This document shows, piece after piece, positions 40,408 through 50,115 of a stretch of DNA of 64,000 nucleotides; position 1 is the stretch's first letter; each line of letters starts with the position of its first letter. Position numbers and translations under genes: made by a program. Source of the stretch: a plasmid; assembly GCF_053078305.1 (NCBI RefSeq), contig NZ_CP166875.1; one strand, 5' to 3'. The notes beneath the pieces were generated by a model. It saw nothing but the letters and a program-made list of their open reading frames with translations. It was not told the DNA's origin and did not search any database.

Positions 40408-41259
40408 TCAGACTCGTGGCGGCAATGCACCAGGATAATGCCGTGCAATAATATCATTCAGTTTTTCAACAAGGTCAGAACGCTTAAAGACAATGTGTAC
40501 GGTCCCTTTCTGGTAGCCACGCACCGTAAAATATTCCCCTTCTAACAGCTTACCGACATTGTCGCCGTTCCCGAGAAATTCACCGTACTGCGCCCCGATG
40601 CTGCTCCGGAAGTCAGGAACGTTGCGCCCCTCCAGCAGATAAAACGGACGTACCAGGTCATCCAGTGCCTCCCGTCCGCTGCAGTCCAGCGTCACACGCC
40701 CGTTACTCCAGCGGTACAGCAGGTTTTCAATAATGATTTTCTTACCCAGACGGCAGGGATTATTGGTTCTGTAATCCCATGACAATTTCCGGTAGACATC
40801 AATCAGTCCCTGTTCAAATGTTTGCATCTTACTGGCATTCAGATAGCGAAAAGTTGCCAGTACATTGTCCAGGGTGATTTCAGGACAGGTGTCGCTCATC
40901 AGCTGGCTGTTCCACTCATCACGCTGGCATGAACTCATGAAGGTGTACATGCCAGTATCCGTCATCAGGCGATCCCAGATTTTCCGGTCGGCAAGACGGG
41001 TGATATTCTTTTTTGCTTCTTCCGGTTTATCCATGCATCGAACGGAGTCAGTCACGCAGTCTTCAAACCCGTAGAGAAAAATGTCACCGGAAGCATCGAG
41101 CAGAATCCTGCGCGCTGTCGCCAGGCATTCCATCGCCTGCATGAACAGTGCAATACCTTCGTTACGCTGCGCGATAATGCGGTCGATGGCCACAGACGGA
41201 ATAATATCTGTCGTGCCGGCAGTATTCAGGTCAGCAGTGGGTAAAGTCTGATTCATCAC
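40408..41259 (-). CDS. hypothetical leading-region protein (283 aa)
   Basis: First minus-strand ORF downstream of hairpin element A1. Confidence 0.5.
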   Translation of the reverse strand: MMNQTLPTADLNTAGTTDIIPSVAIDRIIAQRNEGIALFMQAMECLATARRILLDASGDIFLYGFEDCVTDSVRCMDKPEEAKKNITRLADRKIWDRLMTDTGMYTFMSSCQRDEWNSQLMSDTCPEITLDNVLATFRYLNASKMQTFEQGLIDVYRKLSWDYRTNNPCRLGKKIIIENLLYRWSNGRVTLDCSGREALDDLVRPFYLLEGRNVPDFRSSIGAQYGEFLGNGDNVGKLLEGEYFTVRGYQKGTVHIVFKRSDLVEKLNDIIARHYPGALPPRV

Positions 41260-41269
41260 ATTGTCTCCT

Positions 41270-41660
41270 CATCGTCACGACTGCCGGGTCAGCCAGGTCA
41301 TTTCCCGGAGGAGCGAAGCTCCTTCTGCCGTCCGGGTCTTCGGGGATTTCCCCGCAGTGGACCTTTCCGATGGGGGCCCGTTTACCGCCTCACGGGACAG
41401 CTGTCCGGGGGCGGACGCAAAATTTTTAGCCGGGTTCATGGCTAAAAATTTTGTGGCCGGTGCATCTCACCCTGGACAGATGGAACGGGAGGGGGTTACG
41501 TCTGCCCCCTGGAAAGTCCACAGCGGGAAACAGGCCGCAGGGGTGGCGGCAGGAGGGAAGACTGCTGCGCCATCAGGCGCAGTTTCCTCACACACCGTCA
41601 GGTGTGCAGGGAGCGCAGGTCACGGCGCGACTGAAGAAAAACGACGGCACAACAATGGCA
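41270..41660 (-). promoter_or_regulatory. repeated hairpin element, family A copy 1 (Frpo/ssi-like ssDNA promoter candidate)
   Basis: Shares blocks with 44690-45070 and 60050-60420; contains perfect hairpin AAAATTTTTAGCC / GGCTAAAAATTTT. Confidence 0.4.
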
Positions 41661-41734
41661 TGTGGTGGTCACTGGCACACCACTCCCGCACAGGTGAAAA
41701 CAGAGAAAACCGCACGACATTTACAACCAAAAAA

Positions 41735-41820
41735 AAGTGAAATTTCTTCACTTTTTCACGCTTATTTTTCGCGTTGATTTGGTGATTATGATGATAAAAT
41801 AAAGTGAAATTTTTTCACTT
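41735..41820 (+). promoter_or_regulatory. two identical palindromes (AAGTGAA-N5-TTCACTT) flanking a putative promoter
   Basis: Palindromes at 41735-41753 and 41802-41820, AT-rich spacer with TTGATT; just upstream of the HTH gene. Confidence 0.4.
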
Positions 41821-41835
41821 TTTCAAAGGTGTTTT

Positions 41836-42087
41836 ATGACCGGCTGGGAACTGCGAATCTGGCGAAAAAGCATGCTCTGGTCACGCGAAAAAGCGGCCAG
41901 AGAATTTGGCGTGACGCAGAGAACATGGCACGCCTGGGAAAATGCGGAACAGGTGGATGTCACCGTCTGGAGGACCACCCAGGCACTTTCAGTCCGTGAC
42001 CTGCTGCCTCACATGCAGGGGATGCGTAAGGCAGATATCATCAGGCGTCTGGAAAATGAACTGGGGGAAACGGCAGGGAATGTGTGA
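41836..42087 (+). CDS. small HTH DNA-binding regulator (Cro/XRE-like)
   Basis: 83 aa; segment AAREFGVTQRTWHAWEN typical of an HTH; preceded by twin palindromes. Confidence 0.5.
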   Translation: MTGWELRIWRKSMLWSREKAAREFGVTQRTWHAWENAEQVDVTVWRTTQALSVRDLLPHMQGMRKADIIRRLENELGETAGNV

Positions 42088-42117: not shown

Positions 42118-42324
42118 CTACTGCTCATCAGGAAACAGCTTTTTCAGTTCTTCACCGGAAAGTCCCGTGACCTCCTGAATCCGTTCCGGCGGCCAGCCTA
42201 TATCCCGCAGCCGGCAGGCTATTTCCCGCGCCACTTCAAGAACCCCTTGTTTAAAACCTTCTTTAAAACCTTCTTTAAAACCCTCGTCGAAACCTTTCTG
42301 TATAAGACGTTCTGCAATCGTCAT
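42118..42324 (-). CDS. stand-alone small protein resembling an Rpn C-terminal domain (RpnS-like)
   Basis: SD AGGAG before ATG; resembles the C-terminus of the adjacent Rpn (TIAERL..KG...TGLS.EEL.K); contains KEGF x3 tandem repeat. Confidence 0.45.
   Translation of the reverse strand: MTIAERLIQKGFDEGFKEGFKEGFKQGVLEVAREIACRLRDIGWPPERIQEVTGLSGEELKKLFPDEQ
42249..42287 (-). repeat. 12-bp tandem repeat x3 encoding (GFKE)n
   Basis: ttctttaaaacc repeated three times on the + strand. Confidence 0.8.
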
Positions 42325-42386
42325 GCTGTTTGCTCTGCTCCTGCTGGCAAAAAAGCCCGGGATTTTGCCGGGCTTTGTGGTTCTCA

Positions 42387-43301
42387 TCAGTGAGTGATTT
42401 TCTTCAGTTCGTCATCGGAAAGTCCGGTAGCCTGCTTAATCTGCTCCGGCGTCATCCCCATTTTCTGAAGCTGGCACGCAATAGCCAGGGCTTTTTCAAG
42501 CGCTCCTTCCATGCGTCCTTCCATCCTGCCTTCCTGGCGACCTTTTTGCTCAAGACGTTCTGCGATAGTCATCAGTTTATCCTCATGCTGCGGCAGACGC
42601 TCAGCCAGCGCCCGCATAAATTCCGGTGATACAGAGTCCCCTGCGTTAACGATGTAATGAATCAGAACACGCACCTGTTCATCTGAAATTTCCACCATGA
42701 CCTGCGGGAGTTTGTCCAGCAGCTCCATCATGTCACGATGGCGGATATGCTTCATCAGCAGCGTCAGTGCGGCCATCCGGCGATGGTTCATGATTTCATT
42801 GTCATCAACGACAGTGATATCAACCAGCGGAAACGGCTTTGTGTATATTTTAGCCGCAAGAGCCGGATTCTCAAAACAGCCCAGCCAGTTCATGCTGTAC
42901 GGGTACGGGCTGCGCTCACCGTGATAGAACAGCACCGGAATCACCAGTGGCAACGTTTTGTGCTGCTCCAGATGTCTCTGCATCGCCGCCACACTGTAAC
43001 GTAACATGCGAAAAGGCATGTACAGATTTTCGGTGCTCTGGTGCTCGATGAGCGTATAAACATAGCCGTCTTCACCCCCGGTGGTTTTCACGCTCCAGAG
43101 GATATCGCTGGCGTACTGATGCAGGTCCGGCTCTACAAAGGTGGCGGGTTCCAGCTTCAGCGTGGACAGGTCGCACAACTGCCGGTACTCCGCAGGAAGA
43201 TGCAGTTCCAGAAAATCTCTGGCGACGTCGGGATTCGCCAGGAACGACCGGAACGCGGCATCATGCGGCGTGGGCGTTGTGGTGTTTTTCTTCTTACTCA
43301 C
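42387..43301 (-). CDS. Rpn-family recombination-promoting nuclease (YhgA-like PD-(D/E)xK)
   Basis: 304 aa; N-terminal region typical of YhgA/Rpn proteins; C-terminal repeat domain QEGRMEGRMEG ... TGLSDDELKK. Confidence 0.65.
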   Translation of the reverse strand: MSKKKNTTTPTPHDAAFRSFLANPDVARDFLELHLPAEYRQLCDLSTLKLEPATFVEPDLHQYASDILWSVKTTGGEDGYVYTLIEHQSTENLYMPFRMLRYSVAAMQRHLEQHKTLPLVIPVLFYHGERSPYPYSMNWLGCFENPALAAKIYTKPFPLVDITVVDDNEIMNHRRMAALTLLMKHIRHRDMMELLDKLPQVMVEISDEQVRVLIHYIVNAGDSVSPEFMRALAERLPQHEDKLMTIAERLEQKGRQEGRMEGRMEGALEKALAIACQLQKMGMTPEQIKQATGLSDDELKKITH

Positions 43302-43687
43302 GGTTCCTCCATCAAATCAGCAGCATCGCAGCAATCATCGCCCAAATCCCCACAACCGAGAGGACAGCAATTGCGTTCAAAGCCATGACAACAATAGCCG
43401 CGTTCTGAGTCACGGCGTATTTCTTCAGCAATCTCTTCTGCGGAAAGGTAATCAAACTCCTCACGGGCCAGTTCCAGGACCAGTAGATGTTGTTCTGTCG
43501 GCAATGTGGCCACAAAATTATCAATAGCAGCACTCAAACGTCGCTGATATAGCTCATAAACAAGACCACAACGGGGCATTAGTTCTTCGGATAATAGTTC
43601 CAGTTTTGAGCGAATTCTGTCAGCGTTGAAAGTGACTTCATCAAAAGACATATGAAAAGCTTTGTCAGTATCAAAACAAGACTTCAT
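43298..43687 (-). CDS. hypothetical acidic protein with Cys-rich C-terminus
   Basis: SD GGAGG before ATG 43687; C-terminus CCHGFERNCCPLGCGDLGDDCCD. Confidence 0.4.
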   Translation of the reverse strand: MKSCFDTDKAFHMSFDEVTFNADRIRSKLELLSEELMPRCGLVYELYQRRLSAAIDNFVATLPTEQHLLVLELAREEFDYLSAEEIAEEIRRDSERGYCCHGFERNCCPLGCGDLGDDCCDAADLMEEP

Positions 43688-43863
43688 TGTTATCTCCAGC
43701 CCTCCCGGGCCCTGAATGAAAGAGAATCTGTTTCCCTTTTCTGTTTTTTGTGGAGACACCATGCAACACAGACGTCGTGATGTTTTTCATCTTGCTCACG
43801 GTTCCTCCTGGTAAAGTACCTGAACACATCCTGCCACCTGCACAGGCAGACGGCAGGGGTTAA

Positions 43864-44689: not shown

Positions 44690-45070
44690 GGGCCGACCGA
44701 TTGCTCCCCCGGAGGGGCGAAAGCCCCTTCTGCCGTCCACTTCTTCGGGGTTTCTCCCCGCAGTGGACCTTTCCGATGGGGCAGCGACAGCCACGGCACG
44801 GGGCAGTTGTCCGGGGGCAGACGCAAAAGTTTTTGACGCTTGCGGCAAAAAGTTTTGTGGCTGGTACATCTCCCCCCTGGACGGCTGACACGTGTTGTGG
44901 CCGCTTCAGCCCCCGGAAAGTCCACAGCGGGAAACAGGCCGCAGGGGTGGCGGCGGAAGGGCAGACAACTGCGCCATCAGGCGCAGTTTCCTTACACACC
45001 GTCAGGTGTGCAGGGAGCGCAGGTCACGGCGCGACAGAGGCGGCGCGACCGGAACGGTCGCTGCAAGCCT
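44690..45070 (-). promoter_or_regulatory. repeated hairpin element, family A copy 2
   Basis: Same ordered blocks as copy 1; hairpin CAAAAGTTTTTG / CAAAAAGTTTTG with TTGACG in the stem. Confidence 0.4.
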
Positions 45071-47787: not shown

Positions 47788-48471
47788 TTACGCAGCCTCC
47801 GGCATAAACCAGTCATCATTCGCGGCCCCCTGCTGCATGGCCCGTTGTACGGCGGCAAGGCGTTGCTGCCCGGCACGGTGATACTGCTCAAGCAGCTCGA
47901 TACCGATATACCGGCGTCCGGACTGGAAGGCGGCCACGCAGGTTGAGCCGCTGCCTGCAAACGGGTCCAGCACAATTGCGTTCGGGTGTGTGAAGCTCTC
48001 AATCAGCGGTTGCAGGCTGGTAACGGGCTTTTCCGTCGGGTGATGACGATTGCCTGAATATTTCCAGCCCAGCACGTCCGGCAGCGGGTTTTGTGGCAGA
48101 CGTGGACGGCCTTTTGCCAGGATGTAGGCACATTCGTGGCGATAGCCCACATATGCGGCCTTCGATGTGTAGTTTTTGGTGAAGACCAGGTGACCAACAA
48201 CGCTGAATCCCGCATTTTTCCAGGCAGACATAAAACGATCGACGCGATTCCAGCCATAGAAGCTCACCATTAACGCGTCTTTTTTGAGTACGCGGTACAT
48301 CTCATTACAGGCCGGTTGCAGCCATTCATCGGTTTTATCGCCGGCAATGGTACGCCCCTGACGGTCACGAAAACCGACGAGGTACGGCGGGTCGGTGAGG
48401 ATGAAATCAATGGCGTTATCAGGGATACGGGCCATAACATCGATGCAGTTACCGAGGACAAAACGGGACAT
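47788..48471 (-). CDS. orphan DNA methyltransferase (N6-adenine/N4-cytosine class, DPPY motif)
   Basis: Motif IV FILTDPPYL; C-terminal AdoMet-binding segment VLDPFAGSGSTCVAA; SD GAAGGAG; no adjacent restriction enzyme gene. Confidence 0.7.
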   Translation of the reverse strand: MSRFVLGNCIDVMARIPDNAIDFILTDPPYLVGFRDRQGRTIAGDKTDEWLQPACNEMYRVLKKDALMVSFYGWNRVDRFMSAWKNAGFSVVGHLVFTKNYTSKAAYVGYRHECAYILAKGRPRLPQNPLPDVLGWKYSGNRHHPTEKPVTSLQPLIESFTHPNAIVLDPFAGSGSTCVAAFQSGRRYIGIELLEQYHRAGQQRLAAVQRAMQQGAANDDWFMPEAA

Positions 48472-48485
48472 ACCAAACTCCTTCT

Positions 48486-48830
48486 CTTACAGAGGGCACC
48501 GGGAGGGCCCCCCTGTGGTGCCCGTTCCCCGCTGCCTGTGGGCTGTTCACCGCGTCCGGTAACGGGTCAGGCCGACCGTGGAATACCGCAGCCGTCGTCT
48601 TTTTGACGGCAAGGTTATGCCGCGAAAGCGGCTTGAAGGGCGTTCATCAGAAAAGGGCGACGGGCTGGCGTACACTGTCACCGGTGCCAGCCGGGAGCGG
48701 TAAAAGCGCCCGTCCCGTGCCCGGCCGGACGCGGGACACTGACCACAGGCAGCGTTTATGCCGCGCCGCGTCAGCCGGCGCAGTAAAAAGAGGAGCACGG
48801 CGACATCCTTTGTCGGAAAAGAAACGGGCG
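48486..48830 (-). promoter_or_regulatory. long imperfect-hairpin element, family B copy 1 (Frpo/ssi-like ssDNA promoter candidate)
   Basis: Near-identical to 49800-50115; distal arms complementary (CGCTGCCTGTGG ... CCACAGGCAGCG); contains TTGACGG. Confidence 0.45.
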
Positions 48831-49782: not shown

Positions 49783-49799
49783 GGGAATTCTCCTCACAG

Positions 49800-50115
49800 G
49801 AGCACCGGGAGGGAGCCCCTGTGGCGCCCGTTCCCCGCTGCCTGTGGGCTGTTCACCGCGTCCGGTAACGGGTCAGGCCGACCGTGGAATACCGCAGCCG
49901 TCGTCTGTTTGACGGCAAGGTTATGCCGCGAAAGCGGCTTGAAGGGCGTTCATCAGAAAAGGGCGACGGGCTGGCGTACACTATCACCGACGCCAGCCGG
50001 GAGCGGTAAAAGCGCCCGTCCCGTGCCCGCCGGACGCGGGACACTGACCACAGGCAGCGTTTATGCCGCGCCGCGTCAGCCGGCGCAGTAAAAAGAGGAG
50101 CACGGCGACATCCTT
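49800..50115 (-). promoter_or_regulatory. long imperfect-hairpin element, family B copy 2
   Basis: About 97% identical by eye to copy 1 over roughly 310 bp. Confidence 0.45.

Follow-up and report, generated by a model that had tools for sequence, protein, structure and literature searches.

A separately encoded RpnS paralogue downstream of rpnP2 in the leading region of IncI-complex plasmids

The 64-kb window analyzed here, by which the whole stretch of DNA is meant, belongs to an IncI-complex conjugative plasmid of E. coli and carries the gene of an Rpn-type nuclease, followed on the same strand by a small open reading frame (ORF) paralogous to the C-terminal domain of that nuclease. By its sequence the nuclease is identified as RpnP2 (Zhong et al., 2023, PNAS; PMC10400941). 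The locus probably represents the RpnP2 toxin-antitoxin and anti-phage module of IncI-complex conjugative plasmids, in which the small ORF would be a duplicate of the S domain of the RpnSs type, acting as a second modulator with a specificity unlike that of the intragenic S and not as the primary antidote.

The arrangement was correctly recognized in a first-pass annotation made from the letters of the sequence, but it is largely known, as RpnP2 and the layout with a separate downstream RpnS gene have both been published. Since such downstream genes, termed RpnSs, have already been described, the succession of rpn and small ORF is not novel, and, the RpnP2 system and its intragenic antitoxin being published as well, the finding adds no new kind of biology. 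Added here are the conservation of the small ORF under purifying selection, a hairpin in the spacer, a mismatch in repeat number and the location in the leading region downstream of an ssi/Frpo-like element. A literature search for follow-up work on RpnSs proteins found none.

RpnP2 is found in the leading region of plasmids of the IncI complex (IncI1, B/O, K, Z), which in E. coli and Salmonella are among the main vehicles of resistance genes, those for ESBL included. Specialists may find it useful that the published constructs lack an S-like gene which about 2,000 plasmids have conserved and whose repeat number changes independently of the array in the nuclease. Two questions are thereby raised: whether a second, length-mismatched antitoxin paralogue serves as backup, for tuning, for cross-immunity or as anti-defence, and whether plasmid entry turns the module on.

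Table 1: Positions of the rpnP2 locus and neighbouring elements in the window.
Feature	Position	Strand	Basis
rpnP2 (RpnP2-L), 304-aa Rpn/YhgA-like PD-(D/E)XK nuclease, GTG start	42387-43301	-	ORF list, Pfam, NCBIfam
Intragenic rpnP2-S, 61 aa, internal ATG at 42572 (M244), in frame with rpnP2-L	42387-42572	-	sequence
Candidate sigma-70-like promoter match TTGAGA-16-TAAAAT inside rpn, upstream of the internal start	42847-42874	-	consensus scan, 10/12 matches
Hypervariable 12-nt/4-aa repeat in rpnP2, GRQE-GRME-GRME, 3 units	42507-42542	-	Tandem Repeats Finder, period 12 at 42505-42534
Alternative ATG overlapping the rpn stop (TGATG), 89-aa form, PGAP start	42385-42387	-	ORF list, PGAP
Terminator-like hairpin AAAGCCCGG-CAAAATC-CCGGGCTTT with T-run, between rpn stop and small ORF	42349-42376	-	RNA fold, 9-bp stem
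AGGAG Shine-Dalgarno-like site of the small ORF, 13 nt 5' of ATG	42338-42342	-	sequence
Small ORF, 68 aa, separately encoded RpnS paralogue (RpnSs type; "RpnP2-Ss")	42118-42324	-	similarity to RpnP2 C-terminus
Hypervariable 12-nt/4-aa repeat in the small ORF, GFDE-GFKE-GFKE-GFKQ, 4 units	42247-42294	-	Tandem Repeats Finder
Accessory 129-aa ORF, stop overlaps rpn start (GTGA), in a subset of plasmids only	43298-43687	-	WP_000833767.1
ssi/Frpo-like element, about 330 nt; second copy at 41304-41634	44708-45038	+	direct repeats, 83% identity

The nuclease gene and its intragenic antitoxin

The synthetic RpnP2 gBlock AO591 and the primer AO619 of Zhong et al. (2023) have exact matches in the window, the primer at 42285-42306. 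The 5' end of ECOR13 rpnP2 is matched exactly over 108 nt, the 87 nt upstream of it with two mismatches, and a 399-nt comparison with ECOR13 yielded eight synonymous differences in addition to the engineered ones. Residues 1-133 of the protein are identical to ECOR13 RpnP2, the engineered active-site mutations (four changes) apart; as these four are the sole amino acid differences from the active-site-mutant gBlock AO730 over this stretch, the catalytic residues D14, D66, E86 and Q88 are all present and intact in the window.

Both the nuclease and the small ORF named in the first-pass annotation were recovered from the ORF list. Residues 11-207 of the nuclease match PF04754 (Transposase_31/YhgA-like) with an E-value of 1.2e-77, and TIGR01784 of NCBIfam is matched with 178 bits (cutoff 52.1); identity amounts to 53% with RpnB and 43% with RpnC, and pN/pS in the N-domain of rpn is 0.09. 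PADLOC (2023), which is without an Rpn model, returned noise matches only.

RpnP2-L was described as a toxic nuclease that is blocked by RpnP2-S, produced from an internal start in the same gene; RpnP2-L* is toxic and rescued by S, and the RpnP2-LS pair defends against T-even phages (PMC10400941). The suggestion of a toxic Rpn nuclease in a toxin-antitoxin or defence module thus agrees with published data on toxicity, neutralization by RpnP2-S and anti-phage activity, and by analogy with the ECOR13 orthologue the window RpnP2 is expected to be an active, toxic endonuclease.

The internal start codon of rpnP2-S is preceded by the Shine-Dalgarno sequence GAGGA at 42580-42584, 7 nt 5' of the ATG, and its context CATGAGGATAAACTGATG did not vary among the RpnP2-type plasmid loci compared. 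Zhong et al. obtained RpnP2-L* by mutating the corresponding internal start (PMC10400941), and the non-repeat core of rpnP2-S shows a pN/pS of 0.09. As was shown for ECOR13 RpnP2-S (PMC10400941), the window RpnP2-S may be translated separately and block RpnL toxicity. It had been suggested that the small partner is a separate gene instead of an intragenic product; this did not hold, because internal start and Shine-Dalgarno sequence are intact, so that two S-type products are to be expected and the small ORF is an additional one and not the only antidote. The rpn gene's own start for the same domain (ATG 42572) had been missed in the first-pass annotation.

In the mechanism proposed here, rpnP2 would give rise to the full-length PD-(D/E)XK endonuclease RpnP2-L and to the 61-aa antitoxin RpnP2-S from M244, which would bind the C-terminal domain of L via its long first helix and keep the nuclease inactive. 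The published RpnP2-LS construct extends 101 bp past rpn and ends at position 42285 of the window (AO619), so the small ORF is cut after about 13 codons, and cells carrying it grew like vector controls (PMC10400941). Since this construct with its truncated small ORF was non-toxic, the small ORF is not needed to tame the toxin.

Conservation and start of the downstream small ORF

The small ORF lies on the strand of rpn and begins 62 nt past its stop codon. That it is paralogous to the C-terminal domain of Rpn was confirmed by BLASTP, in which its residues 1-63 align with residues 244-302 of RpnP2, in the last 61 residues of the nuclease (56% identity, E 6e-18). In the DNA, the ATG of the small ORF (42324) is the exact point at which homology to the S domain sets in, and with about 66% nucleotide and 56% amino acid identity to the rpn 3' end the paralogue is old yet still open. 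An identity matrix gave 57-63% to RpnP2-S versus 32-45% to RpnA-, RpnB-, RpnC- and RpnE-S of K-12 and YpaA. In the 100%-identical plasmid pDW54_2 the ORF is named 'RpnC/YadD family protein' by PGAP, a label that was rejected, as the identity of 32% to RpnC-S is the lowest of all comparisons. Many homologues carry the precomputed label PF27070.1. In some species stand-alone RpnS genes are labelled DUF4351 (PF14261) in Pfam; the 89-aa form, when scanned against Pfam, gave no PF14261 and weak unrelated matches only.

Homologues of the small ORF were found in 2,023 PLSDB plasmids, 1,888 of them conjugative, from E. coli, Salmonella, Shigella, Klebsiella, Citrobacter and E. albertii, and homologues are also present in 337 protein clusters. 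The core displays a pN/pS of 0.26 (pS 0.11), and 88 of 94 complete copies are intact, the other six being frameshifted or fused. As judged from these substitution patterns, the small ORF is under purifying selection.

The spacer between rpn and the small ORF contains a terminator-like hairpin, which is followed by 4-7 T in all 29 distinct spacer variants (91 loci), in some with a compensatory G...C insertion. It was not listed by the automatic terminator scan, probably because the stem extends into the T-run. With such a hairpin directly upstream, expression of the small ORF may be low. Nearly all spacers have kept the block CAGCAGGAGCAGAG..AG.ATG; the AGGAG ascribed to the small ORF as its own is present, but its spacing of 13 nt from the ATG is sub-optimal.

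Two readings that deny the 68-aa product have to be weighed against these data. According to the PGAP annotation the true product would be the 89-aa protein, translationally coupled to rpn via TGATG, and indeed in 59 of 91 loci, as in the window, this ATG shares bases with the rpn stop codon and the 21-codon extension is in frame; several PGAP records use this start. In the remaining 32 loci, however, the extension is out of frame or without an ATG; read as codons it has a pN/pS of 0.86 and coincides with the hairpin, and S-domain homology begins precisely at the downstream ATG instead. On account of the pN/pS, the lost frame and the overlap with the hairpin the 89-aa ATG was rejected as a conserved start, which it probably is not, and an 89-aa true product is very improbable.

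It would also be conceivable, though quite improbable, that the rpn 3' end was once duplicated in tandem and that the small ORF is a relic of this copy, untranslated and passively carried along. The analogous K-12 ypaA is labelled a pseudogene in RefSeq, the Shine-Dalgarno spacing is poor and the hairpin lies upstream, six of the 94 copies are damaged, and the published construct was non-toxic without the intact ORF. A relic is hardly reconciled, however, with the low pN/pS of the core at a pS of 0.11, with ORFs intact in 94% of the copies across plasmids of the hosts named above, with a conserved start codon and Shine-Dalgarno block and with a paralogue of this divergence that has stayed open; moreover, the analogous YpaA protein was detected by SPA tagging (PMC10400941).

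Repeat arrays, fold and leading-region location

Tandem Repeats Finder reported a period of 12, 3.2 copies and 96% matches at 42245-42282 in the small ORF. A '(GFKE)3' repeat had been noticed there before; the 4-aa tandem repeat is real, but the triplet is slightly overstated, since two of the four units are exact GFKE. The array of rpnP2 comprises 0-6 units across 80 related loci and that of the small ORF likewise 0-6 (93 copies with countable units), both varying independently in 32 combinations. In only five of the 80 loci was the number in the small ORF equal to that in the adjacent rpn, in 75 it was different, while 11.1 equal pairs are expected by chance; the numbers are, if anything, anti-correlated (Spearman -0.26), with fewer matches than chance at a P of about 0.02 when kinship is ignored. 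In the window three units in RpnP2 are opposed to four in the small ORF, and the units are chemically different, GFKE in the small ORF versus GRME in rpnP2. For RpnC, the sole published test of such a same-number rule for cognate pairing, S blocked its L partner only at equal repeat number, and an S with a different number failed (Fig. 4D, PMC10400941). Taken with this rule, the prevailing mismatch argues against simple redundancy and renders a simple 'antidote' role in cis uncertain. Of the antidote function suggested for the small ORF there remains that it is a paralogue of the C-terminal inhibitor domain.

An AF2 model of the small ORF displays a long helix 1 and two short helices (mean pLDDT 69.8, 55-60 in the repeat region). 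In a Foldseek search against the PDB this medium-confidence model had RpnA-S (7TH0) as its top match (probability 0.96, E 0.45); a PDB sequence search with the small ORF did not find 7TH0, so that the relation emerged by fold search only, and phmmer with full-length RpnP2 against 7TH0 gave an E-value of 1.1. Many antitoxins also act as repressors. In accordance with that, the product could be a small HTH-like DNA-binding dimer which regulates transcription, e.g. of the rpn operon or of the convergent HTH gene, instead of acting on the nuclease protein. The fold matches ranking after 7TH0 are HTH DNA-binding domains (Hin, resolvase, TrpR-like, DeoR), and a relatedness of RpnS to HTH motifs by HHpred was noted by Zhong et al. 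(PMC10400941). These matches, however, are of low probability with E > 2, repeats resembling an operator are not evident beside rpn, and an interface for protein pairing accounts better for the hypervariable repeat of helix 1; a transcriptional regulator is improbable.

With respect to location, the pair of rpn and small ORF belongs to the leading region of the plasmid; its distance from the nikA/oriT side is 2.4-3.5 kb, and it is oriented like ardA, psiB and ssb. In the direction of transcription the ssi/Frpo-like element is situated upstream of orf144, orf88, orf129, rpn and the small ORF; folding of its + strand as ssDNA gives a single long hairpin (z = -9.4), and homologous elements occur two to three times per IncI plasmid and adjoin ssb genes in other plasmids. 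It is this folding and the partial matches next to ssb genes that suggest the ssi/Frpo assignment. On either side of the accessory 129-aa ORF the rpn 5' end is directly repeated over 52 nt (43259-43310 and 43757-43808); the ORF is absent from the ECOR13 sequence and several other loci fetched; family searches with it gave no matches.

Leading regions are enriched in anti-defence genes (PMC11541004) and transcribed early (PMC12672017). The small ORF might on these grounds be a trans-acting decoy or cross-immunity factor, produced early from the leading region, that neutralizes RpnP2-type nucleases of other repeat length, from resident or competing IncI-family plasmids or the recipient, and not the adjacent one. 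Unmatched and, if anything, anti-correlated repeat numbers, two independently hypervariable arrays, the position and orientation shared with ardA, psiB and ssb downstream of the long ssDNA hairpin, and the retention of the small ORF beside a divergent rpn allele are all consistent with this reading. On the other hand, the small ORF is only 32-45% identical to the K-12 chromosomal RpnS domains, which makes chromosomal Rpn proteins unlikely targets, the hairpin immediately before it speaks for low expression, the mismatch statistic ignores kinship, the same-number rule derives from RpnC only, and the text of the early-conjugation transcriptome study (PMC12672017) does not state an induction of the rpn operon. 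We regard such a factor as unlikely, if the least so of the alternatives, and as a shade less likely still in the strict form that the S-like protein is a repeat-length-mismatched decoy, made early after conjugative entry, which disarms the other-length RpnP2-type nucleases of resident IncI-family plasmids or recipients and is no spare antidote. If this were true, the arrays would be a 'lock' (the own nuclease and its S) and a 'pick' (Ss) in plasmid-plasmid or plasmid-host conflict.

Most likely, the small ORF acts via helix-1 pairing as a second modulator and not as the primary antidote. It would be a diverged S-domain duplicate of the RpnSs type (cf. ypaA after rpnE), translated from the ATG at 42324 and not from the 89-aa start, and reached only by transcripts reading through the hairpin after rpn; its protein would use the same helix-1 pairing to modulate an RpnP2-type nuclease with a specificity unlike that of the intragenic S, whereby we infer its translation, its Rpn binding and its target. 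That a real gene is present is indicated by its occurrence in 2,023 plasmids, the contrast in pN/pS between core and extension, the 88 intact copies and the conserved ATG and Shine-Dalgarno block; the kind of protein is suggested by the top fold match, and its secondary role by a non-toxic RpnP2-LS that ends inside the small ORF. The second-modulator reading has to accommodate the rarity of equal repeat numbers together with the failure of different-number S in RpnC, the chemically different repeat units, the wide Shine-Dalgarno spacing below a terminator-like hairpin, and the fact that the same small ORF is also found downstream of a divergent rpn allele whose C-terminal domain is 45% identical to it.

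Comparison with known systems

The leading-region early genes of IncI1 and F plasmids (ardA, psiB, ssb; ssi/Frpo) resemble the rpn pair in location and orientation relative to oriT and in the long hairpin upstream, but ardA, psiB and ssb have anti-defence or establishment functions, whereas RpnP2 is a toxic nuclease with published defence activity.

ECOR13 RpnP2-LS is the same gene; it shares the internal S start with the window copy, and the agreement continues downstream for at least 101 bp beyond the stop codon. Different from it, the window carries the 129-aa ORF as an insertion of about 498 nt directly 5' of rpn, with the duplicated rpn 5' end on its flanks, and the published ECOR13 constructs do not contain the small ORF in full.

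From chromosomes and plasmids alike, RpnS copies encoded separately downstream of rpn ("RpnSs", ypaA among them) are known, and they cluster with their cognate upstream S (PMC10400941). In rpnE-ypaA (RpnE-Ss) and rpnC-rpnC-Ss of E. coli chromosomes, as in the window, the small ORF follows directly downstream of rpn on the same strand, starts with MTIAERL like the internal S, resembles the S domain of its own upstream gene most and has a variable number of 4-aa repeats. However, YpaA is 82% identical to RpnE-S, the window small ORF only 57-63% to RpnP2-S; ypaA begins 12 nt after rpnE with a strong AAGGAG and no hairpin, whereas the plasmid small ORF is preceded by a spacer of 59-63 nt with the conserved terminator-like hairpin, and its repeat units are of another chemical character and in number uncoupled from those of rpn. 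According to the medium-confidence AF2 model, the small ORF would share with RpnA-S (7TH0) the long helix 1 and two short helices (TM-score 0.71 on target, 37% identity); RpnA-S, unlike the small ORF, is devoid of the repeat insert.

The nuclease gene and its intragenic antitoxin

Genes of the rpn type are toxin-antitoxin modules in which full-length RpnL is a toxic endonuclease and the small RpnS, translated from an internal start, its antitoxin, and rpnP2, a plasmid gene of E. coli ECOR13, counters T-even phages (Zhong et al. 2023, PMC10400941). The 304-aa protein of the window, proposed in the first-pass annotation as a YhgA/Rpn-like nuclease, clearly belongs here (PF04754, Pfam, E 1.2e-77; TIGR01784, NCBIfam, 178 bits). 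The synthetic rpnP2 fragment and primers were taken from Dataset S2 of Zhong et al. 2023 (PMC10400941). Both the 5' part of this fragment and primer AO619 (at 42285-42306) match the window exactly, and over 399 nt the active-site-mutant fragment differs from the window only in eight synonymous changes and the engineered D14A, D66A, E86A and Q88K. On these matches the gene is regarded as an RpnP2 allele with intact catalytic site, its identity with RpnP2 being close to certain.

Features of the rpn locus and its surroundings
Feature	Position	Strand	Remarks	Source
rpn	42387..43301	-	304 aa, GTG start	ORF list
Internal start of RpnP2-S (M244)	ATG at 42572	-	GAGGA before it, 7-nt spacing	
Spacer hairpin	42349-42376	-	GC-rich, then T-run	folding
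Small ORF	42118-42324	-	68 aa from ATG at 42324	ORF list, sequence
Longer reading of small ORF		-	89 aa; ATG overlapping rpn stop codon (TGATG)	ORF list
XRE-like HTH gene	41836-42087	+	small; converging on small ORF	
Palindromic motif AAAGTGAAATTTCTTCACTTTTTCA	41729-41758, 41796-41825		30 nt, two copies just upstream of HTH gene	
DUF4942 gene	40408-41259	-	between rpn pair and oriT	
orf129 (WP_000833767.1)	43298-43808 region		129 aa, directly upstream of rpn; stop codon overlaps rpn start (GTGA)	
52-nt direct repeats	43259-43310, 43757-43808		79% identical, around orf129	
ssi/Frpo-like element	44708-45038		~330 nt; upstream of co-oriented orf144-orf88-orf129-rpn-small ORF	folding, repeats
Second copy of element	41304-41634			repeat comparison
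Further such elements	48400-48800, 49788-50105			

The context of M244 was invariant in the RpnP2-type loci examined, and the intragenic antitoxin start is, as read from the DNA, intact in the window gene. The RpnP2-LS construct carried only 101 bp 3' of rpn, and cells with it matched vector controls in growth and gained protection against phage (PMC10400941). At this length the small ORF was cut after about 13 codons, and since the truncated construct was non-toxic, the downstream ORF is not required to neutralise RpnP2-L.

The downstream small ORF

The expected similarity of the small ORF to the Rpn C-terminus was borne out, as its product aligns with nuclease residues 244-302 (56% identity, E 6e-18). 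DNA similarity to rpn sets in precisely at its ATG and runs to shortly beyond its stop codon, and it opens with MTIAERL, the motif of the intragenic S. To judge from these boundaries it duplicates the S unit and nothing more, so that the separate partner gene of the first-pass annotation exists, but adds to an intact intragenic S instead of replacing it. The tandem 12-nt repeat, announced as (GFKE)3, is present, but reads GFDE-GFKE-GFKE-GFKQ, four units of which only two are exactly GFKE; the nuclease carries GRQE-GRME-GRME at the equivalent site. Likewise, the AGGAG site exists, but is poorly spaced (13 nt to the ATG). Of 91 loci only 59 keep the 21 additional codons of the 89-aa form in frame, and pN/pS over this extension is 0.86, which argues for the ATG at 42324 as the conserved start; that the coupled 89-aa form is the true product is highly improbable.

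RefSeq records, pDW54_2 (L001 8319-8588) among them, disagree in how they annotate the small ORF, with long or short start and names such as 'RpnC/YadD family protein', 'hypothetical protein' or 'Rpn family ... transposase'; the analogous K-12 ypaA is marked as a pseudogene though its protein was detected.

By tblastn the small ORF was found in 2,023 of 72,556 PLSDB plasmids (1,888 conjugative) from Escherichia, Salmonella, Shigella, Klebsiella and Citrobacter, and a protein search gave 337 clusters, the best 120 of which were all stand-alone small proteins. Compared were pDW54_2, nine more plasmid loci and 87 metagenomic loci (DNA pattern). The reading frame was intact in 88 of 94 complete copies, with a pN/pS of 0.26 (pS 0.11; 52 non-repeat codons) in comparison to 0.09 for both the RpnS core and the rpn N-domain. 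Judged by these counts it is a real, conserved gene and likely a functional one; an untranslated relic is very unlikely. The rpn and small-ORF cores of ten plasmid loci hint at recombination or faster turnover in the 3' part of the locus. In some plasmids (L008 2438-3926; L083) an IS3-family element sits exactly at the small-ORF end, where it substitutes the stop codon and appends the tail YEPPRVSWRVFYL.

The AlphaFold2 model, of medium confidence (pLDDT 69.8), predicts a long helix 1, with a low-confidence kink in the repeat region, and two short helices after it. Its best PDB match was the crystal structure of RpnA-S, 7TH0 (probability 0.96, target TM-score 0.71, but E 0.45); that the protein is an HTH-like DNA-binding regulator seems quite unlikely.

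Plasmid setting

Over 2 kb the locus shows 100% identity to pDW54_2, a plasmid of E. coli, and some 1,500 E. coli replicons, nearly all of them plasmids, gave matches; related loci belong to IncI1/B/O, IncI-gamma/K1 and IncK2/Z (MOBP/MPF_I). The pair lies in the leading region, 2.4-3.5 kb off the nikA/oriT side, among nikA/nikB (relaxase), the DUF4942 gene, the HTH gene, ardA, psiA, psiB, a parB-like gene and ssb, with ardA, psiB and ssb oriented like the pair. The ssi/Frpo-like element folds as a single long ssDNA hairpin (z = -9.4), and homologues occur two to three times per IncI plasmid and in >5,000 plasmids in all, some next to ssb genes. Single-strand promoters of the ssi/Frpo class drive early expression of leading regions (PMC12672017), and the repeated elements are probably of this type. 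The product of the DUF4942 gene matches PHROG families, one annotated as DNA methyltransferase (E 4e-17); the gene is preceded by an ssi-like element of its own, which makes it a further candidate for an early or anti-restriction function.

The HTH gene adjoins the pair in every plasmid examined, and the paired palindromes before it look like operator sites. The orf129 protein, Cys-rich and acidic at its C-terminus, gave no family hits. Its insert (~498 nt) lies between repeats that copy the Shine-Dalgarno site and opening codons of rpn. Neither the ECOR13 sequence nor about two thirds of the related loci contain orf129.

Repeat numbers, expression and the role of the downstream copy

Among 80 RpnP2-type loci the 4-aa repeat arrays of rpn and small ORF vary independently from 0 to 6 units in 32 combinations. 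Equal numbers occurred in only five loci, where independence would predict 11.1 (P about 0.02 by permutation; Spearman -0.26; shared ancestry ignored), a deficit which is only suggestive as the statistics disregard kinship. In RpnC, L is blocked only by S of the same repeat number (Zhong et al., PMC10400941). If this rule transfers, the small ORF would usually be unmatched to its neighbouring rpn. With such mismatch, a trans-acting decoy or cross-immunity factor against RpnP2 variants of other repeat length may be considered, though we hold it to be unlikely. The small ORF is also kept 3' of another rpn allele, which shares 79% identity overall with RpnP2, carries GIQQ repeats and has a C-terminal domain with only 45% identity to the small ORF; this allele is possibly RpnP1 of Zhong et al. 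Such alleles (GIQQ/GVQQ repeats, different C-terminal domain) occupy the same plasmid position in L006, L020, L021, L024, L054 and L056, chimeric ones with the mixed C-terminus GIQQGIQQGIQKGRMEEKLD... in L036 and L059, and in every case the same small ORF follows.

The spacer from the rpn stop codon to the small ORF measures 59-63 nt. Its hairpin was kept in all 29 spacer variants (91 loci), with a compensatory G...C insertion in one lineage and a loop change adding a base pair in others, and looks like an intrinsic terminator. As there is no promoter room 3' of it, the small ORF could be expressed solely via read-through.

Toxin RpnP2-L and antitoxin RpnP2-S were both shown for the ECOR13 orthologue (PMC10400941). 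We moderately favour a package in which RpnP2-L is the nuclease toxin, RpnP2-S from the internal start its matched antitoxin, and the RpnSs-type 68-aa paralogue a second helix-1-pairing protein of differing specificity, which would be made at low level through terminator read-through. Nuclease, intragenic antitoxin, defence role, repeat hypervariability and separate downstream RpnS copies are already published, so that the first-pass observation was correct but known. The published tests of RpnP2 did not cover the downstream copy, and the repeat mismatch lends its role added interest.

Chromosomes and plasmids can also carry RpnS 'as a separate gene', as in ypaA (RpnE-Ss) after rpnE and RpnC-Ss after rpnC, and such copies cluster with the S of their own upstream gene (PMC10400941). 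The small ORF shares 57-63% identity with RpnP2-S, against 32-45% with YpaA and the S domains of K-12 RpnA, B, C and E, in agreement with the published rule that such copies come from their own upstream gene; the PGAP name 'RpnC/YadD family protein' is unsupported. However, it is far more diverged from RpnP2-S than YpaA from RpnE-S (82% identical), and whereas in K-12 only 12 nt, including a strong Shine-Dalgarno site but no hairpin, lie between rpnE and ypaA, the plasmid pair is separated by its longer, hairpin-bearing spacer.
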